This document shows, one piece after another, positions 1 through 34,329 of a DNA stretch of 34,329 bases (position 1 is the first letter of the stretch; each line of letters begins with the position of its first letter). The notes below the pieces were generated by a model. It worked only from the letters and a program-made list of their open reading frames with translations, did not search any database and was not told the DNA's origin. A program made the translations under genes and the position numbers. Origin of the DNA: Candidatus Micrarchaeota archaeon (GTDB lineage Archaea; Micrarchaeota; Micrarchaeia; Anstonellales; Anstonellaceae); contig JBDRNY010000022.1 of assembly GCA_043810635.1 (NCBI GenBank), positions 1-34,329 of the forward strand, read 5' to 3'.

Positions 1-549
1 CACTACTCCTGCTTCTTCGGGTTCTGGGGCGATAGCTTCAGTGTCTTTTGTAGTGTCTGGAGGTTCAGTAGTTGTTTTCTTAGTAGTGGTACCAACATTA
101 TCGCTCAATTCAAACAAGGTTATATAGCTGCCTTTCTGGAACATACTATCACCTGCTTTTATAGCCACTATTTCCGCATCCACAGGTATTTCCAGAAACT
201 TGCAATCAACTGTCTTTTCAATACCTGGATTTATCAGCATAGAGCATAAGAAAGGGTTTGCTTCATAGTTCCTGCCATTAGAATCTGTTATGAACATGGC
301 GCCTCCAGGACTGTCTTTTTCTGCGCCATCGTTCAACACAGTGAATGTAACAGTAATATCTTTCTCACCACCGCTAATACTTTCCCGATATTTATCAAGC
401 TGAATTGTAAAATCCCCGTATTTCACAGTTTTTCCATAATACTTCTCATACGGGTCTGCTTTTGCACTATTAGATACAGTTTGAGAACAGCAACCTGCTA
501 AAAATAGCATACCTATAACAAACAAGCTTGTTAAGAATACGTGCTTCAC
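1..549 (-). CDS. Secreted lipoprotein, Ig-like/DUF4352-like domain followed by a Thr/Pro/Glu-rich linker (runs off window start)
   Basis: Not in the ORF track. Manual translation from GTG at 549 (SD GAGGTGG upstream): MKHVFLTSLFVIGMLFLAGCCSQ... with lipobox LAGC; VTFTVLNDG...ITDSNGRNY...INPG pattern; open to base 1. Confidence 0.75.
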   Translation of the reverse strand, partial: MKHVFLTSLFVIGMLFLAGCCSQTVSNSAKADPYEKYYGKTVKYGDFTIQLDKYRESISGGEKDITVTFTVLNDGAEKDSPGGAMFITDSNGRNYEANPFLCSMLINPGIEKTVDCKFLEIPVDAEIVAIKAGDSMFQKGSYITLFELSDNVGTTTKKTTTEPPDTTKDTEAIAPEPEEAGVV

Positions 550-589
550 ATAACCACCTCTCAATTCGATACTAACTATATTCTTTTAT

Positions 590-650
590 ACTTTGATATA
601 ACATAGTATATTATCTATATATAAAACCTTTGCTCAAGTTATACCAAAGT
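590..650. promoter_or_regulatory. Inverted repeat flanking divergent TATA region; candidate operator
   Basis: ACTTTGATATAAC (590-602) and GTTATACCAAAGT (638-650) are 12/13 reverse complements. Confidence 0.45.
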
Positions 651-654
651 TCAT

Positions 655-1011
655 TTGAAAGGACTGGTGAATGATTTGGGCAGAGAATTTAAGCTGATAA
701 ACATGCTGCTTGCAGAAGGGGCTCTTGAGATATTAGAATGTATTGAGGAGTTGGAAGTAGCCAGATTTGGCGATTTCAAGAGGCTTAGGAATGGCAGGAC
801 TGGAAAGGTATTTTCTGCAAACACTTTATCTTCAAGGCTAAAGGAGCTTGCTTCTTCTGGGGCGATTGATAATACTGTTATTGAATCCAGAAAACAAAGA
901 AAAGTTGTAGGATACAAAATTACTGCAAATGGAAAGAAGGCACTGAGATTGGCTATCAAATATGAAAATGAGCTGGAGAAAATTCTAAAACCAAACAAGA
1001 TAGGAGAATAG
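655..1011 (+). CDS. HxlR-like winged-helix transcriptional regulator
   Basis: RFGDF...SANTLSSRLKELASSGAI...VGYKITANGK pattern; start may be ATG at 703 rather than TTG at 655. Confidence 0.8.
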   Translation: MKGLVNDLGREFKLINMLLAEGALEILECIEELEVARFGDFKRLRNGRTGKVFSANTLSSRLKELASSGAIDNTVIESRKQRKVVGYKITANGKKALRLAIKYENELEKILKPNKIGE

Positions 1012-2537: not shown

Positions 2538-3980
2538 ATGGCAAAACTGTGCAAAATAGTGATGATGGTTGTTCTTCTGCTTCCAATGCTTTTTTCAGGC
2601 ACTTGTGATATAAGTGCGGTGGAAAAATATATTGAGCCGAATATGTCATGCTATACAAATGAATTCAGCACACCTACCCAGCAATTTGCAATTGTGATAA
2701 TAGAGGGAAATGAAACATTTTTGGTAAATAATGAGGAGGGCAGGATATTGGAAAATGAGAAGGAAATAGAGGATGCACTTGTAAGAAACATAGTTTTTTC
2801 AGCCGGATATCAGGCAGCTTATGACAGAACTGATGAAGCGGTTGAAAATTTGCATAATAACAAAACAATTAGCAAGGAACTATGCTATCGCATGACAGGC
2901 ATGGACAGGCATCCCTGTGATGATAAGGAAACATGTATTTTTGCGGCACTGTCCACCCCGATTTCTTCCTCAGCATTGTATGGTCAAGGGTTTTGGGAAA
3001 GCATGCTTGCATATAAGCATAATTGTGAAAATTTGCAGGGAGGAATTGACAAAATGAAATATTTGCTTGCAAATAAAAAAGAGGAATCCGGATATGCAAA
3101 AGAAATGGCGGGCAATATTTCAGAAATTATTGAATTGTCGGAAAAATTTGAAGATAATGCGCTTTTGCTTACTATTGCGGATGAGAATTGCACCGGGCTG
3201 GGGGCAAGAACATGTTTTGAATACTGCCCGAAACTGAATTGGAGCGTGCAGCAGGGGGAATGGGATGGAATACACAATACATGGATAACAATAGAGTTTC
3301 AGCTTGAAGATATTGAATTTCAGAGCGGTAGGGCAATGGAAATACTGCTCAGGACAAGGGAATGGAAAGAGTATAGTGAAAGCAAATACAGTATATGGAA
3401 TAATGCAAAAGGGGAATTGGGAAGTATAAAATTAAATGTCAGCGCCTCGCTTAGCACTGAAAACGCCCTTCTTGTAAATGACAGCACGCTTGAGGAGGAA
3501 TATGCGCAATGGCTGTTGGGCGTGGATGAAACTACTGAGCTTGCAAAAAGCGGGGAAGTTTACAATGCTTTGAAAAGAAAAAGAGAATTGGAAGCAGGGG
3601 CTGAAAATATTATTGAAAAAAGCTGGCAAAATTCGCAAAAAGTGCAGAATATAAGGAATAGCATTGAAAATGCAAACAAAACAATTGCAAAATTGGATAA
3701 TTCGAATGAAAGCGTGGAATTGCGGGGGGAATATGAAGAATTTGTTGAAAGTGTGGAATATCCGATAAATGCAAGCGGGTTGGACGGGATGGAGAATAGG
3801 GCGGAAGAAATTGAGGAGGGGGCGCTTATTTTGCTTGGAAAAAGCCAAATTACCCCTGTGCAAAACCAGACGCAGAATGCAACTGTCGGGGGGAATGGGA
3901 AGGGGCAAAAAGATGTTGTAAGCAAAATAAGCGATGCAATTGCGCAGATAATTGAAGCAATAATGTCATTATTCGGATAG
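2538..3980 (+). CDS. Secreted/surface hypothetical protein, Cys-rich N-half, coiled-coil C-half
   Basis: 480-aa ORF with N-terminal signal peptide, clustered Cys, NQT/NAT sequons and an amphipathic C-terminal helix. Confidence 0.7.
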   Translation: MAKLCKIVMMVVLLLPMLFSGTCDISAVEKYIEPNMSCYTNEFSTPTQQFAIVIIEGNETFLVNNEEGRILENEKEIEDALVRNIVFSAGYQAAYDRTDEAVENLHNNKTISKELCYRMTGMDRHPCDDKETCIFAALSTPISSSALYGQGFWESMLAYKHNCENLQGGIDKMKYLLANKKEESGYAKEMAGNISEIIELSEKFEDNALLLTIADENCTGLGARTCFEYCPKLNWSVQQGEWDGIHNTWITIEFQLEDIEFQSGRAMEILLRTREWKEYSESKYSIWNNAKGELGSIKLNVSASLSTENALLVNDSTLEEEYAQWLLGVDETTELAKSGEVYNALKRKRELEAGAENIIEKSWQNSQKVQNIRNSIENANKTIAKLDNSNESVELRGEYEEFVESVEYPINASGLDGMENRAEEIEEGALILLGKSQITPVQNQTQNATVGGNGKGQKDVVSKISDAIAQIIEAIMSLFG

Positions 3981-3988
3981 GGGATTTG

Positions 3989-4402
3989 ATGGAAGATAAA
4001 AAAGTTCAGCCAATAATAATTGACACGAATTTCTGGCTTCTTCCATTTGAAATGAGGGTGGATTTAATTGAAGGGCTTGAAAGGCTTATGGAATATTCCC
4101 CTATTTGCATGCTTGTGCCCTCTTCGGTGCATGATGAATTGAAAATGATGGCGGGCGAGAAAACAAAAATGAAAAATAAAAGGGCTGCAAAAGCTGCTCT
4201 TGATATGATTGAAAAATTTGTAAAAGAGGGAAAGGCTGAAATTGTTGAAGCAAAGGGAGTGCCTGACGAGGAAATCGTTTTTCTTGCAATGAAGAAGAAA
4301 GCCTGGGTGGCGACAAATGATATGGAATTGAGGGAAAAGCTGAAAAAGAGGAAAATAAGGACGATAATATTAAAAGACAGACATAACATTGCATTTGCAT
4401 AA
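3989..4402 (+). CDS. PIN-domain protein (Fcf1/Utp24-like)
   Basis: IIIDTNF, VHDEL, PDEEI, VATND acidic tetrad. Confidence 0.85.
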   Translation: MEDKKVQPIIIDTNFWLLPFEMRVDLIEGLERLMEYSPICMLVPSSVHDELKMMAGEKTKMKNKRAAKAALDMIEKFVKEGKAEIVEAKGVPDEEIVFLAMKKKAWVATNDMELREKLKKRKIRTIILKDRHNIAFA

Positions 4403-4460
4403 ATTTTTAAATTAACAAAAATGATATCTAATATTCTTGAGAGTGAGATGAGGTGAAGTG

Positions 4461-6497
4461 ATGGAAGTTGATGCTGCTGTGCTTTATTTTGCGCCATTTA
4501 TTGCAATACTTGCGCTATTATACGGATTTTTTGTTGCAAGAAAGGTGCTTATGCAATCCCCCGGAACAGAGAAAATGCAAAAAATCGCAAAATCAATAAA
4601 AGATGGGGCAGATGCCTACCTTTCAAGGCAATTTAAAACAATAATAATTCCGGTAATAATTGTTGCAATAGTGCTCGGCATATTTATTTCGCCTTTTGTT
4701 GCGGGCGCGTTTATTTTGGGAGCAATACTTTCGGGATTGGCAGGATATATTGGAATGTATTTGGCTGTGAGGGGAAATGTGCGCACTGCAAATGCATCCA
4801 AAAAATCGCTTAATAGTGCATTGCAAACTGCGTTTAAAGCTGGTTCGATAAACGGATTGGCTGTTGTAGGATTGGGGTTGCTTGGGGTGTCGGCAGTATT
4901 TTTGGCAGCATATTTCATATTTTTCAATAAAGTGGAAGAAGAGAGCTTTATCGGCTTGGTTACAAGCGCGCTTATAGGATTTGGGTTTGGAGCTAATTTG
5001 CTTGCATTGTTTATGAGAGTTGGAGGGGGAATTTTTACAAAAGCCGCAGATGTTGGGGCGGATTTGGTCGGAAAAGTGGAAGCAGGAATACCTGAAGATG
5101 ACCCGCGAAACCCTGCAACGATTGCAGATAATGTCGGGGATAATGTAGGTGATTGCGCCGGAATGGGCGCTGATGTATTTGAATCTTATACTATTGCAGT
5201 AATTGCTGCAATGATATTGGGGGGAATGGTTGCAGGATTGGCAGGAGTGGTATTTCCCCTTCTTTTGCATGCTGGAGGAATAATTGCCTCTATTTTAGGA
5301 AGCAGGATTGTGAAGGTGAGGAGTGAGAAGGAAAATCCGATGAATGCTTTGAATAGGGGCTTTTGGGCTTCATCAATTCTTGCCGCAATAATATTCGGCG
5401 CAATTTCGTTTGCAGTGCTTGATGCAAAAAGCGCGCCGCTTGCATTTGGAGCAACTGTGGTTGGATTGATTGCAACAATTTTGATTGCAAAAATAACAGA
5501 ATATTACACAGGCACAGAATATTCGCCTGTAAAAAGCATAAGAAATGCATCCCGCACAGGCGCAGGCACAAACATAATAGCAGGGCTTGGAGTGGGAATG
5601 CAATCCTCTGTAGCGCTTGCATTGGTAATTGCTGCCGCAATCGGCGCTGGATATTATTTATTCGGATTTTACGGAGTTGCATTAGTTGGATTGGGCATTT
5701 TGGGCACAACTGGCTTTTTGATGGCAATGGACACATTCGGCCCTATTGCAGATAATGCAGGGGGCATTGGGGAAATGTCAAAACTTGACAAAGATGCAAG
5801 AAAAAGATTGGATGTACTTGATGCTGTTGGCAATACTACAAAAGCATTAACAAAAGGGTTTGCAATAGGCTCGGCTGCACTGGCTGCTGTTGCATTGTTT
5901 TCAACATATATTGAAGAAGCAAATTTGGAGGCAATCAATATTGCAAATCCGCTTGTATTTATTGGATTAATAATTGGCGTATGCGTGCCATTTCTTTTTT
6001 CCTCCCTTACCATACTTTCGGTTGGAAAAGCTGCATCAGAAATTGTGCATGAAGTGAGGAGGCAATTTAAGGATGGAAAAATAATGAAAGGGGAAAAAGA
6101 GCCGGATTATGCAAAATGCGTTGATATTTCCACTTCTGCCGCATTGCGGGAATTAATCGGGCCTGCAATGCTTGCAATAGGCACCCCAATATTAGTGGGG
6201 GTGTTTCTTGGGCTGGAAGCGCTTGGAGGATTTTTAGGAGGAGCTATAGGTGCAGGATTGCTTATGGCAGTATTTCAGATAAATGCAGGAGGGGCATGGG
6301 ATAATGCCAAAAAGCTTATTGAATCAACCGGAAAGAAGGGAAGTGATGAGCATAAAGCTGCAATTGTCGGAGATACTGTGGGAGATCCGCTCAAAGATAC
6401 TTCTGGGCCGGCGATAAATCCGCTTCTGAAAGTTGCAAATATTGTTTCAATTATATTGGCTGGATTGCTTGCAGGAAAAGGCTTGGGGCTGGCATAA
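4461..6497 (+). CDS. hppA: Membrane-bound proton-translocating pyrophosphatase, K+-independent signature
   Basis: GGGIFTKAADVGADLVGKVEAGIPEDDPRNPATIADNVGDNVGD, GNTTKA, GGAWDNAKK, GDTVGDPLKDTSGP; SD GAGGTGA. Confidence 0.97.
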   Translation: MEVDAAVLYFAPFIAILALLYGFFVARKVLMQSPGTEKMQKIAKSIKDGADAYLSRQFKTIIIPVIIVAIVLGIFISPFVAGAFILGAILSGLAGYIGMYLAVRGNVRTANASKKSLNSALQTAFKAGSINGLAVVGLGLLGVSAVFLAAYFIFFNKVEEESFIGLVTSALIGFGFGANLLALFMRVGGGIFTKAADVGADLVGKVEAGIPEDDPRNPATIADNVGDNVGDCAGMGADVFESYTIAVIAAMILGGMVAGLAGVVFPLLLHAGGIIASILGSRIVKVRSEKENPMNALNRGFWASSILAAIIFGAISFAVLDAKSAPLAFGATVVGLIATILIAKITEYYTGTEYSPVKSIRNASRTGAGTNIIAGLGVGMQSSVALALVIAAAIGAGYYLFGFYGVALVGLGILGTTGFLMAMDTFGPIADNAGGIGEMSKLDKDARKRLDVLDAVGNTTKALTKGFAIGSAALAAVALFSTYIEEANLEAINIANPLVFIGLIIGVCVPFLFSSLTILSVGKAASEIVHEVRRQFKDGKIMKGEKEPDYAKCVDISTSAALRELIGPAMLAIGTPILVGVFLGLEALGGFLGGAIGAGLLMAVFQINAGGAWDNAKKLIESTGKKGSDEHKAAIVGDTVGDPLKDTSGPAINPLLKVANIVSIILAGLLAGKGLGLA

Positions 6498-6543
6498 TTC
6501 CGCAAGGAATTTGTAGACAAATCCATAAGGATTTGCTGATGGC

Positions 6544-7275
6544 TCAGAGGGGGCGCACAAATTCCATTTCTTTTTCGCTTCTCCAAACTTCCAAAGTGCA
6601 TCTTCTTTTTACAGGCACTTCAAACTGCCCGTCAACAACTGCGCCTGCATCGCATGTGGAATCAACTATTGCTTTTGAATGCATGTCTTTTCCGACTATT
6701 GTTGGCAAAAATGCGCGCCTGAAGGGAGCTATTGCAACAATTTGATATTTTTTTGAAAGCGGGGGCATTTCCTCCCCTCCGCAAGAGTATGCATAGGCGC
6801 GCGAGCCAGTTGCAGTTGAAAACATCAGCCCGTCCGCCTGAAATACATGCTTTTTTTTGTCTACAAAAAGGCGCAAATCCAAAATGCGGTGAAGCCGGTT
6901 TCTTACAACAACCTCATTTAATGCGTTAGGAAGCCTTTTTTTGTCAAGGGAGGAGGAAAGCATTGCCCTCTTTTCAATTTTAAATCCGTTTTTCACTATT
7001 CCCCCAAGATACTCTTTCCATTTTTCATGGATTGTGTTGCAAATATGGCTTGATTTTGACCCTATTGCAATTATCGGCTTTTCATAATAATTTTTATAAT
7101 AAAGAACTGTGCCGTCTCCCCCGACAGTAATTATTGTTTGTGCATCTTCCGGCGGAAGAATATCAATTTTGTGGGAGGAAAGGAATTTTGGAATTTCCTG
7201 TGCAAGCTTTCTTGCAAATCCCTTTCTTTTGTTTATAACAATTCCAACAGAAGCAAGTTTCATATCCATCATCAA
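6544..7275 (-). CDS. nadK: NAD kinase
   Basis: GGDGT, LNE, DGLMFSTATGSRAYAYSCGG, VDG motifs. Confidence 0.9.
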   Translation of the reverse strand: MMMDMKLASVGIVINKRKGFARKLAQEIPKFLSSHKIDILPPEDAQTIITVGGDGTVLYYKNYYEKPIIAIGSKSSHICNTIHEKWKEYLGGIVKNGFKIEKRAMLSSSLDKKRLPNALNEVVVRNRLHRILDLRLFVDKKKHVFQADGLMFSTATGSRAYAYSCGGEEMPPLSKKYQIVAIAPFRRAFLPTIVGKDMHSKAIVDSTCDAGAVVDGQFEVPVKRRCTLEVWRSEKEMEFVRPL

Positions 7276-7988
7276 TTGTTTACAATTGTTATCGGAAGGG
7301 TGAATGTTTCATTTGGAAGGTCGGAGTCAGGGGCGGGTATAGCTGTTATGTTAAAGTGGCCGGTTCTTATTCCAGGGGGGTAGCCAGAAATGGTTAAATT
7401 TCCAGTAACGCTTTCCCCGCTTCCAAGAGAGGTGGTGCCCTCTTCATCATATGAGCATATTGAGCATTCAAGGGTTTGGGTTATTGTGTAAGAAACATTT
7501 GCCCTGTTTTGTATTGTCAAGCCATAGCTTTGCGAGCTTGAATTAAAATAAAATCCGGTTCTTGAAATTGAAACCATTCCTGCGGGGCGTATTAATACAT
7601 GGGTGCCGTTGTGATGTATAGAAGCGCGAAAGGTGCCTGTCTGGTTTGGCCAGCTTCCCGAAACATTGAAAGGAAGCACAGCAAAAGCATCTCCAAAATT
7701 CCGCACATGAAGGCTTAGGGTATGGTTTGCAATAGAGCTGTTTTCCAATATAACCGATACTGGAATGTCCAGCATATATTCCTGGTGCGCTCCTGGCCCT
7801 TGCGCCCAAACATCTCTTGCCCCTGCAGAAAGGATTGAAACTACGTGGTTTGATTGCGCATATTGCTCATGCAATGCCTCCTGGGCATATATGCCATTGA
7901 ATATAACTACTAGAACGATGAGTATGATGAGCATGGCTGCCATTACAACAGTATATTCCATGCTTACCTGGCCTTTGCTTTTTCCCAT
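7272..7988 (-). CDS. Class III signal peptide (type IV pilin-like) protein
   Basis: MGKSKG/QVSMEY followed by a hydrophobic helix; many N-x-S/T sequons. Confidence 0.8.
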   Translation of the reverse strand: MGKSKGQVSMEYTVVMAAMLIILIVLVVIFNGIYAQEALHEQYAQSNHVVSILSAGARDVWAQGPGAHQEYMLDIPVSVILENSSIANHTLSLHVRNFGDAFAVLPFNVSGSWPNQTGTFRASIHHNGTHVLIRPAGMVSISRTGFYFNSSSQSYGLTIQNRANVSYTITQTLECSICSYDEEGTTSLGSGESVTGNLTISGYPPGIRTGHFNITAIPAPDSDLPNETFTLPITIVNN

Positions 7989-8040
7989 GTTTAATCCATA
8001 GCAAGGACTGTTTTAAAGTCTGCTGGAAAAATGGAATATA

Positions 8041-8652
8041 ATGCAATTAACAACAATACCCCCGAACGGGCCTGCTGTTTTGCTCTCTCTGGCGCACCTG
8101 AAAAGCGGGGGAGTGGTATGCTATCCAACAGATACATTGTATGGTATTGGGGGGGATGCACAAAATATTGATGCTGTGAAGAAAATATTCGATATAAAAG
8201 GAGGGGGGAAGGGGAGGCCTTTTTCAGTGTTGTTTGCAGACTGGGAAACGGCATTGGAATATGTGAAAATTGAAATAGATGTTGGGGAGGAATTGAAAAA
8301 AATAACCCCGGGCCCTTATACATTTCTTTTTCCTGCAAAAAAACCATTGCCTGCCGCACCGGGTGAATTGCTTGGGTGCAGGGTGCCGGATAATAGATTC
8401 TGCCTTGAGCTTGCAAAGAAATTTAAAAAGCCGATTATAAGTACAAGCGCAAATTTGCACAGAGGGCGCCCTCCTGCAAGCATTGAAGAGGTTGATGTGA
8501 AAGTGAGCGGAAAGGTTGATTTGGTAATTGACGGGGGAATTTGCAAATATGGGGAAGGATCTACTATAATTGATGTTGGGAATAGGAAAATACTTAGGAA
8601 AGGGGCTGGATTGGAAAAAGCGAGAGAATGGCTTGAAAAACTGGATGTTTAG
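8041..8652 (+). CDS. tsaC: Threonylcarbamoyl-AMP synthase (YrdC/TsaC, no SUA5 C-terminal domain)
   Basis: YPTDTLYGIG, PGPYTF, STSANL, STIID, RKGA. Confidence 0.9.
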   Translation: MQLTTIPPNGPAVLLSLAHLKSGGVVCYPTDTLYGIGGDAQNIDAVKKIFDIKGGGKGRPFSVLFADWETALEYVKIEIDVGEELKKITPGPYTFLFPAKKPLPAAPGELLGCRVPDNRFCLELAKKFKKPIISTSANLHRGRPPASIEEVDVKVSGKVDLVIDGGICKYGEGSTIIDVGNRKILRKGAGLEKAREWLEKLDV

Positions 8653-22602: not shown

Positions 22603-23628
22603 GTGGCGATGAATATTATTCCAAAAAGAGAAAAGATTGGAGTTGGGATTGCAACTGCAGACAGGCATATTCTTACAAAATATTTGAGAGGGATGCAAAA
22701 CGAATTTAAGAAAAATAATATGAATGCTATATTTTCACTTGCATCAAGCGGAGAGATGAAACTAAATTCCAAAAAAGAGTTTGAAAAAGCATTTAAAAAC
22801 ATAAAAATTTTGGAAGAGAATGTGCCTATAGGACAGAGCGTAATAAATGCGATAAACTCAGTGGAAAAAGAAACAAACAAAATAATTATAACATGCGATG
22901 ATTTTGACCATTTAATAAAAGAAATGCCAAAGCTTGCCAACAAAATTGGAGGAAAATACCAGATGGTTCTTGGTTCTTGGGATAAGGATGCCCACATATA
23001 TTTGCCGTTTCCACTGTTTATCAACGAAGTTGCAATGTCTGTCGCAGTAACATATTCAAATGAAAAGCATCCTGCAGATTTGATGATGGCTTATGACACT
23101 AGGTTAGAGAATTATTATGAAAATTATCTGAAATTCAAGAAAAATTCGGTAGAGGAGGGGAGCTGGGTTCAGATATATATCGGATTAATTGGACTTATGT
23201 CAAATGTATGGAAAGAAATGGTTGAAACGGGAAACAAAATTTTCAAAGGGCTGGATGATTGGCATAATGTAGGCTTTGAAGCAGGAGTTACTGTTGCTGC
23301 AAGGGAAGCTGGAATCAGCATAGGATTGATGAAAGTGCCAAAGAGATGGGAGCATCCAGTATATTCCAAAGATTCTGAAAATTATAAAAAAGATGTAGAA
23401 GCATACAAGACTGGAAGACAAAACCAATTCAAGTCAGGAATTTCTGTAGTAAAATATTACATAAAGCAAAAATCTGCCAAAAAGCTTGCAACTATCGAAA
23501 AATTTGAGAAGAATATAATCAATCTTTTGGGAGAGTCTGATTTCTACTGGCCTGGAAATGAAAACCGTCCGATACCAACAATATGGAATACGTATAATGA
23601 TGTTACAAGCACGTTCAACCAAAAGTAA
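22603..23628 (+). CDS. Divergent GT-A (family 2-like) glycosyltransferase
   Basis: IGQSVINA...IIITCDDFDH...MVLGSW...GFEAGV...GISIGLMKVP follows the GT2 motif order. Confidence 0.5.
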   Translation: MAMNIIPKREKIGVGIATADRHILTKYLRGMQNEFKKNNMNAIFSLASSGEMKLNSKKEFEKAFKNIKILEENVPIGQSVINAINSVEKETNKIIITCDDFDHLIKEMPKLANKIGGKYQMVLGSWDKDAHIYLPFPLFINEVAMSVAVTYSNEKHPADLMMAYDTRLENYYENYLKFKKNSVEEGSWVQIYIGLIGLMSNVWKEMVETGNKIFKGLDDWHNVGFEAGVTVAAREAGISIGLMKVPKRWEHPVYSKDSENYKKDVEAYKTGRQNQFKSGISVVKYYIKQKSAKKLATIEKFEKNIINLLGESDFYWPGNENRPIPTIWNTYNDVTSTFNQK

Positions 23629-23630
23629 AT

Positions 23631-24641
23631 TCAAACCATCTCAAACAAATCCAATCTAAACTCCCCCCCTAATAAAAGCGCCAGCTCGCGCACTGCTACA
23701 AGGGTTATTGCAAGGGAAACAAGGGGATAGATAAATGCATACATTTGAAGCGAGCCAAGAAATGCCGACACTGATTTGTAGGGAAGAGAGGTTTGGGATG
23801 CAAGGGATTCTCCTTTTGTTGAAGAGATGTTTGCTATAATATTTGCAAATATTCCAGGCTTGTCCCAGTCAATTGCCGGCACTATTGAAAGTGTGGAAGA
23901 AAGGGAAGCCAAATCCTCTGAAACAGAATTATAGGAAGAGGTGAGGGCAGTATCATGGGATGCAAATGCAAAAAATGCAAGAGGGTAGATTATGAAAAAG
24001 CCTATTGCGCCTGCCATTATTGCCCCGCCAAGCTTTCGGGTGGCAAAGAAGAGGCGGAGGAGCAAGCCTATTGGAAGGAAAAGGGAAAATGCGGTGTATG
24101 CAATAAAATAAAGCGATTGTTTTTGCACTTCTAGCAAAGAGGAGAGGGAGGAAATTTGCCCGGACCAGGAAGAGTAGGTGGAAGAGGAATATTGAAGGGC
24201 TGAAAAGGGGGAGGAAGAAATTACATTTGCATTAATTTGAACAGATGCAAGCGAGGAAAGGGAAAATGACTGCTTGTTAAGTGAAGAGGAAACTTCACCG
24301 CTTTTGTTAATAGAATCTTCAAGCACGCATAAAGAGTAGGCAAGGGGGGAATTTTCAATATTTGAAGGGCCGGGGCATTTTAATATTATGTCTTCTGATG
24401 ATAATTCAGATGTGGCACTACTTAGCAATGCAGCTCCGCCTACAATAGCCCCAAGCAAGGCGGCATTAATTATGGATTGTGCCAATTCTTCAACACCCCA
24501 GCCCCATAATTTTCTGCTTCCAACCGCACGGGAAATTCCAAGCACTAATGCCGAAATAACAATGCTAATTATGACAATGTTGATTGCAAATGTGTATACT
24601 GGCGAAACCGGGGACAAATCCACAACCATTGCAGAGGGCAT
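23631..24641 (-). CDS. CedA/VirB6-like polytopic membrane protein
   Basis: True start MPSAM at 24641 (SD AGGT); N-terminal TM hairpin with KLWGWGVEEL; LPIGLLLRLFFATRKLGGAIMAGAIGFFIIYP re-entrant-type segment. Confidence 0.5.
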   Translation of the reverse strand: MPSAMVVDLSPVSPVYTFAINIVIISIVISALVLGISRAVGSRKLWGWGVEELAQSIINAALLGAIVGGAALLSSATSELSSEDIILKCPGPSNIENSPLAYSLCVLEDSINKSGEVSSSLNKQSFSLSSLASVQINANVISSSPFSALQYSSSTYSSWSGQISSLSSLLEVQKQSLYFIAYTAFSLFLPIGLLLRLFFATRKLGGAIMAGAIGFFIIYPLAFFAFASHDTALTSSYNSVSEDLASLSSTLSIVPAIDWDKPGIFANIIANISSTKGESLASQTSLPYKSVSAFLGSLQMYAFIYPLVSLAITLVAVRELALLLGGEFRLDLFEMV

Positions 24642-24656
24642 AGAAAATACCTTTAC

Positions 24657-24921
24657 GAAATTGCGAGCGGGAAAGCCTGCTCCGTTTAGGAGCATGAGGG
24701 AAGCGAGTCAAATTATCCCAACCACTGGAAACCCACCCCCAAAAAGTATATATACCCTGTATAAATTATATATTCATAGGGCTGGGCACGCCCGAATTTA
24801 AGCTTGTGGAGAAAGGAACAAAAGTTCCCCTGTGAAGCAAGAACTATAAATCGAATACAGATTTGTTTTTTGTTTGTATTCGGGTGGAAACCCTTCGCAT
24901 TTGTGCGGGGGAGGATGTCAC
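24657..24921 (+). mobile_element. Non-autonomous IS200/IS605 (IS608-like) miniature element, 265 bp
   Basis: Follows TTAC (24653-24656); AAAG at +16..+19; left hairpin TGCTCC-GTTTA-GGAGCA; right hairpin CCTTCGCA-TTTG-TGCGGGGG; ends GAGGATGTCAC; removal restores a compact operon junction. Confidence 0.85.
24741..24754 (+). promoter_or_regulatory. BRE/TATA promoter inside the miniature element
   Basis: AAAAAG-TATATATA about 25 nt upstream of the structured region starting near 24778. Confidence 0.55.
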
Positions 24922-24941
24922 ACAAGAAGATTAGCAGAAGA
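24778..24941 (+). ncRNA. TnpB omega-RNA-like scaffold plus flanking guide (ACAAGAAGATTAGCAGAAGA)
   Basis: Hairpins GGGC/GCCC, GGAAC/GTTCC, CGAATACAGA/TTTGTATTCG and the right-end stem; TGAAG-N-GAACTATAAATC block shared with the second copy at the window end. Confidence 0.65.
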
Positions 24942-25166
24942 TTTTGCAATTAATTCTGCAGCACCGACAATTGCAGCAATTATAATTCCCCCAACAACTA
25001 TTCCGATTCCAAGGGATTGGTATTTTCCCCTTGTTTGCGCAGGCTGGGTTTGCGCAATTCCATATACGAGCCCGCCGATAACAATAAGTATTACTGCCAC
25101 ATTTGGGCCCAAATCAAGAAGGTCTAATTTTATTGATTCTATTAAATTGAAAAGGCCGGATGCCAT
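24918..25166 (-). CDS. VirB2/TrbC/CedA1-like pilin
   Basis: 82 aa, two hydrophobic helices separated by the short basic loop QTQPAQTRGKYQ. Confidence 0.6.
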   Translation of the reverse strand: MASGLFNLIESIKLDLLDLGPNVAVILIVIGGLVYGIAQTQPAQTRGKYQSLGIGIVVGGIIIAAIVGAAELIAKSSANLLV

Positions 25167-25169
25167 GTA

Positions 25170-25697
25170 CTACCTCTCCGCTCTCTTCAGAAGCACCACT
25201 ATAAGTGCGCCTCCGATTGTTGAAAGCAATGTGGATGCTGCCACTAATACAATAAACGCCCCTACAAGCCCTGTCAGGCCGGGCAATATGGCGCCAAAAG
25301 GCATAAACCCGCCCATAAGCCCTGAAATTACAAGCACAATCGTCCCCAAAAACGAGCCTGCAAGAGCTGAAACAAATGACACTAATACGCTGGCACGCAA
25401 AGAAAGCCTTGCATCATCCCTCACTTTTTCCAATATGAGGGAGCCGATTATGCCAATAACAATAGGCAATACGCATATTACAGGAAGGTAGGTAGCGGCA
25501 AACACATTGTTTGCCCCGCCAATATTTGTATAAATATTCAGTATTCCTGTGCCGAGTATGAAAATGAAGAATATTGCCGCCCCGGGAATTGATGAAAATA
25601 TTACTTCTATTACAGCACGCAAAAGGTTGTTTGAAATAAACTTAAAAAGCCCCTTACCTGCGCCACTTGTTCCGATACCAGAAAGTGCTCCTGCCAT
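25170..25697 (-). CDS. Hypothetical membrane protein (about 4-5 TM)
   Basis: Gly/Ile/Leu-rich; stop 3 nt from the pilin start, pilin SD GAGGT in its 3' end. Confidence 0.7.
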   Translation of the reverse strand: MAGALSGIGTSGAGKGLFKFISNNLLRAVIEVIFSSIPGAAIFFIFILGTGILNIYTNIGGANNVFAATYLPVICVLPIVIGIIGSLILEKVRDDARLSLRASVLVSFVSALAGSFLGTIVLVISGLMGGFMPFGAILPGLTGLVGAFIVLVAASTLLSTIGGALIVVLLKRAER

Positions 25698-25728
25698 AGG
25701 ATAATAATCCAGACGCCATATTTAAAAC

Positions 25729-26265
25729 TTAGTCCTCATCAAATTCCAAAAATTTGCTAAAACAATCCAGATATTCTTCTTCCCCTCCCCCCCTGTGCTT
25801 GGTATAATAGCCCCTTGATGCCTGGGAAACATGAAAGCACGCCTCTCCATAGGCAAGCTTCAGCCTCATAAGGGAAGTGTCGTCAAAAGAGTCTAGGGAA
25901 ACAAGGCTGTACAAATCTTCAAGCTGCTGCAATGCCATCCTTCCTGAAAAGGTGAGCTTTGCCTCTTTGCCCATTTTTGAAAGAAGTGCGATTATTCTCA
26001 TTACAAATATTCTCACTGTGCACTTGAGCGCTTCAACTCTAGTCTGCCTTCTTTTTGCTTTTCTTCCTGCAAGCCCGGTGTCAAATTCTGGAAGCACGAT
26101 TGTTTTCAAAAATTCCTCCCTATATTTTGGGCTTACTGTTTCATGCTTTTGGTGGGCAATATCCTGCGAAAGAAAATACCTTGACATGCCGGTTTTTTCT
26201 ACATCATCATAAGAATAGACAACAGAGCGCTCTGTTAAAGATGTTTTTTTCTTGTGCAAACCCAT
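25729..26265 (-). CDS. Hypothetical protein
   Basis: 178-aa ORF with upstream TTTATATA and GGTG; no recognisable motif. Confidence 0.6.
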   Translation of the reverse strand: MGLHKKKTSLTERSVVYSYDDVEKTGMSRYFLSQDIAHQKHETVSPKYREEFLKTIVLPEFDTGLAGRKAKRRQTRVEALKCTVRIFVMRIIALLSKMGKEAKLTFSGRMALQQLEDLYSLVSLDSFDDTSLMRLKLAYGEACFHVSQASRGYYTKHRGGGEEEYLDCFSKFLEFDED

Positions 26266-34188: not shown

Positions 34189-34329
34189 GTGACATCCTCC
34201 CCCGCATAAATGCGGGGGCTTCCACCCAAGCATGTTTAGCATACTTGATTTATAGTTCCCACTTCATTAAAATTGCTTGCCCCAAGCGCAACGTTTGGAG
34301 TAGAGACCCTTTTTAGGCAGGCTTTCACT
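34189..34329 (-). mobile_element. Right end of an IS200/IS605-family element (omega-RNA-like region), truncated by the window edge
   Basis: Minus strand ...GAAG CCCCCGCA-TTTA-TGCGGGGG AGGATGTCAC, homologous to 24831-24921. Confidence 0.85.
34236..34328 (-). CDS. tnpB: Probable C-terminal tail of TnpB (partial)
   Basis: Open frame VKACLKRVSTPNVALGASNFNEVGTINQVC* resembles the TnpB tail that overlaps the omega-RNA; the catalytic part lies outside the window. Confidence 0.45.
   Translation of the reverse strand: MKACLKRVSTPNVALGASNFNEVGTINQVC

Follow-up and report, generated by a model that had tools for sequence, protein, structure and literature searches.

A protein-less IS200/IS605-family element in a Micrarchaeota genome, with a tnpB-type promoter region joined to a complete omega-RNA scaffold

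We analysed a 34,329-nt stretch of DNA (the window), which is contig JBDRNY010000022.1 of a Candidatus Micrarchaeota archaeon (GenBank assembly GCA_043810635.1). The genome assembly, 82% complete, amounts to 1.11 Mb over 89 contigs. The window carries, between two minus-strand genes, a protein-less element of the IS200/IS605 family at 24657-24921 (+), 265 bp in length, with the tetranucleotide TTAC at 24653-24656 directly 5′ of it. A first-pass annotation, made from the letters alone, had proposed that this short element contains no tnpA or tnpB. The list of open reading frames (ORFs) and family searches of the genome bore this out, as neither gave a tnpA or tnpB homologue between the element ends. 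The overlapping ORFs are a 137-aa plus-strand frame that starts in the left flank, a 78-aa minus-strand frame with a TTG start, and plus-strand ORFs of 49 aa and 205 aa that begin within the element and extend beyond its end. Terminal inverted repeats (TIRs) were not among the listed features, both ends carrying subterminal imperfect hairpins instead, and no duplication of the target was seen in the flanks. We classed the element as a PATE (palindrome-associated transposable element), as it is 265 bp long and free of transposase coding, its ends resemble those of tnpB elements, and a second copy with the same junction was found elsewhere in the genome. Its parts are as follows.

24653..24656, plus strand: target tetranucleotide TTAC, the TnpA insertion site and presumed transposon-adjacent motif (TAM) of TnpB
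24657..24921, plus strand: whole non-autonomous element (PATE), with ends homologous to those of the full-length tnpB elements (contigs C74, C8, C67 and C86) and of another miniature element (contig C89)
24657..24740, plus strand: left end, with guide AAAG at 24672-24675, an imperfect hairpin at 24676-24696, and GCGAG repeated on either side of the hairpin
24740..24754, plus strand: purine-rich stretch resembling a B recognition element (BRE; 24740-24746) and TATA box (24747-24754), with homology to the promoter region that precedes tnpB in full-length copies
24775..24921, plus strand: complete omega-RNA scaffold, matched by covariance model R1 over positions 1-168 of 168
24779-24782 with 24790-24793, plus strand: stem 1 of the omega-RNA scaffold
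24803-24807 with 24837-24841, plus strand: long-range helix of the scaffold
24815-24819 with 24824-24828, plus strand: shortened stem 2 of the scaffold
24852-24859 with 24875-24882, plus strand: stem 3 of the scaffold
24866..24871, plus strand: run of six T (T6) in the loop of stem 3, a candidate signal for transcription termination in archaea, some 50 nt 5′ of the guide
24887..24921, plus strand: right end, with guide GAAA at 24887-24890, a hairpin at 24891-24911 and a 10-nt tail ending in TCAC (24918-24921)
24922..24941, plus strand: right flank, putative guide part of the omega-RNA, assigned by position only, after the TnpB model in PMC10055086

The RNA region was compared with related loci by means of a covariance model. 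The alignment for this model, termed R1, was made from 55 TnpB-linked loci, none of which came from this genome. The written structure consists of 33 pairs in stem 1, the long-range helix, the outer part of stem 2, stem 3, the right hairpin and a possible 3-bp pseudoknot, and R1 has 168 positions and 30 pairs. Over the 55 loci, 92.8% of the cells in the modelled structure were paired, compared with 71.8% in shuffles and 35-46% when the structure was slid along the alignment; double-change cells numbered 352 against 108.6 in shuffles, and 0 of 500 shuffles reached any of these measures. At the family level, changes on both sides were observed at 25 of the 33 pairs. The pseudoknot pairs were invariant and hence without covariation information. 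A covariance-model search, which the first-pass annotation had suggested as a check, was run with R1: it matched the window end to end at 24775-24921 with 93.9 bits and an E value of 1e-25, a match that in its 3′ half holds partly by construction because the source loci were gathered by a pattern from that half. Copies linked to resident tnpB genes scored 87.7-92.4 bits, and the C89 miniature scored 89.6 bits. In the window copy, all five pairs of the long-range helix are present, with U-A in place of the usual C-G as in three TnpB-linked rows; stem 3 has seven of seven pairs, the right hairpin is fully paired, and the shortened stem 2 forms a 5-bp hairpin of its own. The loop of stem 1 reads GGGC rather than GGAC in all five rows of this genome, and also in 3 of the 73 other rows, two of which are cut off there.

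The same region still reads like protein. The frame from 24776 gives IGLGTPEFKLVE, which, judged by alignment, is a remnant of the TnpB tail: the TnpB-linked relatives have nearly the same bases there and encode tails of the type G-Q/L-D..P-E-L/F-K/T-P/L-V-E. The likeness to a TnpB tail that had been noticed from the letters was thus confirmed. A cmscan search of 23500-26000 against the Rfam families (e.g., HgcC, RF00062) at E ≤10 returned only three chance-level matches, none of them to a transposon-related family. Chance resemblance as the origin of the features was ruled out by the E value of 1e-25 together with the seven homologous ends in the genome.

Upstream of the scaffold, a TATA-like site, TATATATA, lies at 24747-24754, about 22 nt 5′ of ATAGGGC (24776). 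In the full-length copies, a TATA-like box stands 19-22 nt before the tnpB ATG. In both miniatures, the box is at the same spacing from ATAGGGC, with which the RNA model begins, and the intervening bases differ. The join in the window copy falls within the old start-codon region (TTCAT/AGGGC, the slash marking the join). Homology to the full-length copies and to the C89 miniature thus supported the proposal that a tnpB promoter region has been joined to the omega-RNA region. Two TATA-binding protein (TBP) domains were found in the genome, and among the controls the same search matched only the four archaeal genomes, which marks the present genome as archaeal. Because of the TATA spacing and the join at the old start codon, the transcript is predicted to start at about 24776, at the 5′ end of the RNA. 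If 24740-24754 is active as a promoter, the predicted transcript would consist of 146 nt of scaffold followed by the flank as guide. The right flank (24922-24941) is antisense to the last codons of the neighbouring 82-aa gene, and its 16-mer occurs once in the genome.

The DNA ends were examined next to those of the family. TTAC, AAAG at +16..+19, GAAA at -35..-32, both hairpins and the terminal TCAC were all found where the first-pass annotation had placed them. The left guide AAAG, counted from the first element base 24657, is directly 5′ of a hairpin with its foot at C24676/G24696 and a core of TGCTCC/GGAGCA (24678-24683 with 24689-24694). By eye, the stems of this hairpin vary in sequence across seven copies and complementarity is kept. 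The right guide GAAA is likewise directly 5′ of the right hairpin, in which compensatory changes are seen over 53 distinct rows (helix 6). The left cleavage site is 19 nt away from its hairpin foot, and on the right side 10 nt separate the hairpin foot from the cleavage site. The fourth base of the target was complementary to the fourth base of the left guide in six of the seven copies of this genome: TTAC/AAAG in the window copy, C8 and C41, TTAT/AAAA in C74 and C86, and TTAA/AAAT in the C89 miniature, the left end of C67 being the exception. On the right side, the fourth guide base was complementary to the last element base in 74 of the 78 aligned family rows, as GAAG/TCAC (66 rows), AAAG/TCAC (2), GAAA/TCAT (3), GAAC/TCAG (2) and GAAT/TCAA (1). 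These rows came from this genome, one relative and public collections, and the guide and the last base had been left free in the search pattern.

The genome holds further members of the same family. By blastn and family searches, full or nearly full tnpB-only elements with homologous ends were found on contigs C74, C8, C67 and C86, and isolated ends at contig edges on C41, on C89 and in the window itself at 34189-34329; altogether, the ends of the PATE are homologous to seven other left or right ends in the genome. The copy at the edge of the window is as follows.

34189..34329, minus strand: contig-edge copy of a full-length family element, of which the omega-RNA region and right end lie in the window (R1 positions 20-168, 80.4 bits; also found by blastn)

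Contigs C8, C41, C86 and C89 end inside copies of this tnpB-element family, and the elements therefore break the assembly. These elements are probably recent and multi-copy.

The blastn search for further copies, another proposed check, succeeded in finding a second protein-less miniature, on C89 at about 507-818 (-), behind TTAA and adjoining an RNase HII-like gene. It shares the fusion junction, the short stem 2 and the T-rich loop with the window copy, is 86% identical to it (209 of 242 aligned bases), and carries 46 extra nt after the conserved GAACTATA motif, which form two extra small hairpins. In a quick tree, the two miniatures were sisters (support in the SH-like approximate likelihood ratio test, SH-aLRT, 94) and fell into one group (SH-aLRT 87) with two metagenomic rows and the full-length copies of this genome. 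The shared junction at two sites indicates that the miniature moved as a miniature at least once. Stem 3 of the C89 copy is broken in the model-fitted alignment by the extra 46-81 nt; by eye, both miniatures form a stem of differing sequence there, and this was not taken as evidence. The minis are not simple deletions of the resident copies, since the 5′ half of their RNA differs from those copies, which are more diverged in that part.

With regard to the proteins that such an element would borrow, the expectation that the genome encodes TnpB held, whereas for TnpA only a fragment was found. Nine PF07282 matches represent at least four different TnpB types, and three ORFs of 401-402 aa carry the full set of PF12323, PF01385 and PF07282. 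The single PF01797 match (Y1 TnpA; 79.5 bits, model positions 45-121) is cut by the end of contig C44, and HUH-like and Tyr-containing motifs are visible in it. As a separate observation, a 364-aa TnpB-like ORF of a different type is located on C45 at about 3390-3581 (-), with a short hairpin behind it and then, on the opposite strand, a tRNA-like gene.

To place the miniature in its family, a pattern from the 3′ half of the omega-RNA was used as a query; it gave 101 metagenome stretches, 80 of which were fetched, and 24 genome stretches, that is, 104 fetched loci. As the pattern required the 3′ half of the RNA, shorter miniatures without an RNA gene are invisible to this census. The genome matches were in metagenome-assembled genomes (MAGs) of Woesearchaeota, Micrarchaeota, Nanoarchaeota, Thaumarchaeota and Thermoplasmatota and on two contigs of a Fermentibacteria-labelled MAG. 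The latter two loci, L170 and L186 (QNDS01 contigs), thus stand in a MAG labelled as bacterial (Candidatus Fermentibacteria) in an otherwise archaeal element family, which could be due to a binning error or to transfer. After 21 of the 104 loci with less than 400 nt upstream were set apart, 70 distinct loci remained. Directly upstream of the RNA, 53 of these have a TnpB of at least 150 aa, 5 have only fragments and 12 have none, so that 17 of the 70 are TnpB-less or fragment-only derivatives. Seven of the 12 TnpB-less loci, all metagenomic, keep the whole omega-RNA (R1 scores of 117-139 bits), and four are broken within the RNA region. Three near-identical miniatures of thaumarchaeal type were found at three different sites, behind TTAC or TTAT. 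In the quick tree, these three were placed with L067 and L073 (SH-aLRT 95), L112 with L180 and L128 (89-91), L089 with L168 (91), and L122 with L099 (93). Since miniatures stand beside different full-length lineages and three near-identical ones occupy three sites, such miniatures arise repeatedly and move.

From the same observations, that is, the nesting beside different lineages, the retention of the RNA in 7 of 12 loci and the three near-identical copies, a broader idea can be put forward, only tentatively: guide-RNA-only miniatures may be a recurrent and selected archaeal form that is parasitic on TnpA for movement and on TnpB for homing to empty sites. Deletions in separate lineages would then repeatedly leave the left end, the promoter, the complete omega-RNA and the right end, and the primary transcript of the window copy would start exactly at the 5′ end of the RNA; we consider this idea rather unlikely. 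A single 3′ deletion breakpoint common to all miniatures was ruled out, as L112 and L123 retain 25-40 more tnpB bases. In the metagenomic locus L078, the left-end guide region is joined without a gap to omega stem 1, within the 3′ half of that stem, and both share a motif of the type GAGCGG(G)AA; the motif suggests repeat-mediated deletion as one possible route to miniatures. Large internal tnpB deletions with the left end and the whole omega region kept were also seen in L166, L177 and L185 of one Micrarchaeota MAG and in L167, all four of which retain a short middle or end fragment of tnpB. The element of the L166/L177/L185 type is present as three near-identical copies on three contigs of that single MAG.

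Outside this census, blastn of the window copy gave no match in the 41 other genomes of the family Anstonellaceae. In 175 other genomes of the order, there were only four matches, of 21-54 nt with E values of 0.003-0.008, two of which fall within ordinary genes and the other two within the omega region of full-length tnpB elements. In viral contigs, no match was obtained for a 22-base stretch of the miniature or for the family pattern.

The element interrupts a pair of host genes. The two genes are as follows.

24918..25166, minus strand: upstream host gene of 82 aa, whose stop codon TGA (24918-24920) comes from the TCAC end of the element
23631..24641, minus strand: downstream host gene, with a likely ATG start at 24639-24641, 11 nt beyond TTAC

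Without the element, TTAC would be expected to give the 82-aa gene an identical last codon and a TAA stop. Of the 41 other family genomes, 40 encode the conserved 82-aa protein, often accompanied by paralogues. The orthologue of the downstream gene starts 7, 9, 9 and 24 nt past the stop of the 82-aa gene in 4 of the 10 relatives examined, and about 70 nt past it in one; in the remaining five, the 90-120 nt inspected gave no clear position for the next gene. A short ancestral spacer between the host genes fits the insertion. Of the empty site that the first-pass annotation had predicted, the relatives show only this short spacer, and its exact junction is not visible because the orthologous loci are too diverged (the 82-aa protein is 52-69% identical in the relatives examined, and the flanking protein 59-69% identical in the orthologues from the same genus).

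We regard it as probable, on the grounds of these comparisons, that the element is a promoter-driven omega-RNA miniature of a tnpB-only IS200/IS605 (IS1341-group) element that was moved by TnpA in trans. The parts of this account differ in strength: the anatomy and the origin as a derivative of a tnpB element seem almost certain, transposition of the element as a miniature seems highly likely, and the production of a guide-bearing RNA and its use by TnpB today seem somewhat doubtful. In the proposed mechanism, an internal deletion would have removed the tnpB frame, beginning at the start codon and stopping shortly ahead of the omega-RNA region, and would have left four parts, namely the left end, the tnpB BRE/TATA promoter, a compacted and complete omega-RNA scaffold, and the right end. 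The miniature would have been mobilised by a Y1 TnpA acting in trans and inserted on the 3′ side of TTAC, precisely where the 82-aa gene has its stop codon and inside a tight gene pair, with the protein left unchanged. The old tnpB promoter may then start transcription at about 24776 and give an RNA of about 165 nt, the 3′ part of which is the right flank. Loaded with this RNA, a resident TnpB may, once the element is excised, cut the empty site (TTAC plus flank), and recombination would restore the element. What we observed is the anatomy, the homology, the RNA structure at the level of the family, the covariation of guides with their targets and the second copy; promoter activity, RNA production, TnpB loading and present-day mobility are what we infer.

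A number of observations weigh against this account. The right guide GAAA of the window copy is mismatched with TCAC at position 4, one of only four exceptions among the 78 rows, and, if the pairing rule holds, this predicts poor cleavage at the right end. The folding energies of the DNA ends were unremarkable relative to shuffles (z of -0.6 and -1.3), and the single-sequence fold of the RNA was not significantly better than that of shuffles (z of -1.7); the case therefore rests on comparison, not on thermodynamics, and the R1 match is partly circular in the 3′ half, from which the search pattern was taken. Stem 1 of the window copy has four of five standard pairs and one non-standard pair, and stem 2 spans 18 nt where the model has 40 positions. 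Oligo-T can terminate transcription by archaeal RNA polymerase, and the T6 run at 24866-24871 lies within the RNA gene, whereas T runs longer than five occur in none of the 55 TnpB-linked RNAs. T5 runs are present in four of those 55, and the T6 run is also in the C89 miniature. On the sense strand of 537 long ORFs of the genome, T6+ runs were 5-fold rarer than A6+ runs, and in the 60 nt behind stops they were commoner, by a factor of 5.6; most of this is accounted for by base composition. The 14% divergence between the two miniatures indicates that their movement was not recent. The difference in the 5′ half of the RNA between miniatures and resident copies means that compatibility with the resident TnpB is not assured. 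The only Y1 TnpA is the contig-cut fragment, and the hairpin beside it is similar, not identical, to the hairpins of this family.

Much of this would be explained if the same kind of element were now a dead relic, which neither is excised nor gives a guide-bearing RNA and persists as neutral DNA between genes; transcription might halt at the T6 run, or the compacted scaffold might be left unbound. The right-end mismatch, a T run exceeding any in the 55 TnpB-linked RNAs, the 18-nt stem 2, the non-standard pair in stem 1 and the divergence of the two miniatures all point in this direction, and decayed derivatives are common among the relatives, 4 of the 12 TnpB-less loci being broken inside the RNA region. 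Against decay, however, the scaffold scores as highly as those beside intact resident tnpB genes, its long-range helix has been kept through a U-A in place of the usual C-G, and no pair is missing from its stem 3 or its right hairpin. Both miniatures have kept the TATA box at its spacing although the bases between differ, and T5 runs do occur in 4 of the 55 bona fide RNAs. We regard a dead relic as a minority explanation, though one with an appreciable chance of being correct. Alternatively, a full-length element may have inserted here and later lost tnpB in place, the miniature itself having never moved; internal deletions in place are documented for IS605-type elements in Haloquadratum (PMC3119063), and related loci with partial tnpB deletions exist (L166, L167, L177, L185 and L187). 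This course of events is nevertheless very unlikely, as the C89 miniature has the same junction, short stem 2 and T-rich loop at another locus, behind TTAA, and the two are sisters on the tree (SH-aLRT 94); two identical independent deletions would be required. The host may also have taken over the element as a regulatory piece, either as an antisense promoter into the end of the 82-aa gene or, in reverse complement, as an attenuator between the host genes. The element does separate two genes that lie 7-24 nt from each other in 4 of the 10 relatives, the predicted RNA would run antisense over the final codons of the upstream gene, and the host-sense strand has a T5 run at 24741-24745 and strong hairpins. 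However, the element is conserved in no relative and transposon ancestry explains all of the features, which makes a host takeover the most improbable of these explanations, with hardly any weight left to it.

The miniature belongs to a kind that is already in print, and the first-pass annotation overstated its novelty: omega-RNA-encoding PATEs are mentioned in PMC10055086 and an expressed archaeal PATE RNA is described in PMC4615843, and with these and the earlier definition of PATEs (Meers et al. 2023; Gomes-Filho et al. 2015; Dyall-Smith et al. 2011), a gene-less omega-RNA miniature is no new category. PATEs were defined in Haloquadratum walsbyi as IS605-type derivatives without a transposase, some of which arose by core deletion (Dyall-Smith et al. 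2011, PMC3119063). Like those, the miniature has no TIRs, near-terminal palindromes, no target duplication and no transposase coding, and the tnpB core is lost. The Haloquadratum PATEs include terminal-only forms of 52 bp, whereas the present element keeps an interior of about 145 nt, which is the whole omega-RNA gene, in addition to the tnpB promoter; their host is a haloarchaeon, in contrast to the small archaeal genome of about 1.1 Mb here. In Geobacillus stearothermophilus, PATE elements "often encode" omega-RNAs that would need TnpB from distinct elements (Meers et al. 2023, PMC10055086). They share with the miniature the absence of proteins, the family's left and right ends and an omega-RNA that would rely on TnpB in trans, but they are bacterial and the available part of that paper gives no promoter-fusion anatomy, whereas the present example is archaeal. 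VNG_R0052 of Halobacterium salinarum is an expressed, PATE-derived RNA of 99 nt (Gomes-Filho et al. 2015, PMC4615843). As in the miniature, an archaeal intergenic locus has a left-end part fused to a right-end stem-loop, and VNG_R0052 is transcribed; it consists of the left-end part and the right hairpin, whereas the miniature keeps a full scaffold of about 145 nt and is known from sequence alone. The same study described sense overlapping transcript RNAs (sotRNAs) at the 3′ ends of IS1341-type tnpB genes and predicted PATE transcription in other organisms. According to the accessible portion of its text, the sotRNAs are without a classical BRE-TATA upstream, in contrast to the TATA box at the right distance found here. 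A PATE with IStron ends is also shown in a later preprint (10.1101/2023.11.20.567912). Circular omega-RNAs in archaea are the subject of PMC12558985.

In IS608 of Helicobacter pylori, 4-nt DNA guides beside the hairpins, with AAAG on the left, read the cleavage sites (He et al. 2011, PMC3201880). The description of the present element as IS608-like held for the end geometry, which equals the published IS608 distances, and geometry alone was compared: TTAC as target, AAAG at the hairpin foot, and distances of 19 nt on the left and 10 nt on the right. The right end is TCAA in IS608 and TCAC with GAAG or GAAA here, and the relatives here are tnpB-only. The DNA-guide rule of IS608 holds in a distant archaeal family, with natural covariation at both ends and all four base pairs represented at the right end. 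In the literature searched, as far as its available text goes, we found no dissection of an archaeal miniature with promoter, full scaffold and covarying DNA guides. The miniature provides a clean archaeal example of a transposon reduced to cis-acting ends and a guide-RNA gene. It may also serve as a test case for the programming of TnpB in trans by the RNA of a gene-less element, an idea that is in print without being demonstrated in the available text, and its shortened stem 2 could inform the design of minimal guides for archaeal TnpB editors.

Two further observations were made on this genome. The small membrane-like genes around the miniature (82, 336, 175 and 178 aa; 23631-26265, minus strand) matched no Pfam family at E ≤0.01. 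On contig C55, at 4155-8437, the model of the archaeal small-subunit (SSU) rRNA matched in two pieces, 4155-6120 (model positions 4-828) and 6820-8437 (model positions 829-1467), which implies about 2.8 kb of extra sequence, in the form of large insertions or introns, in the 16S gene.

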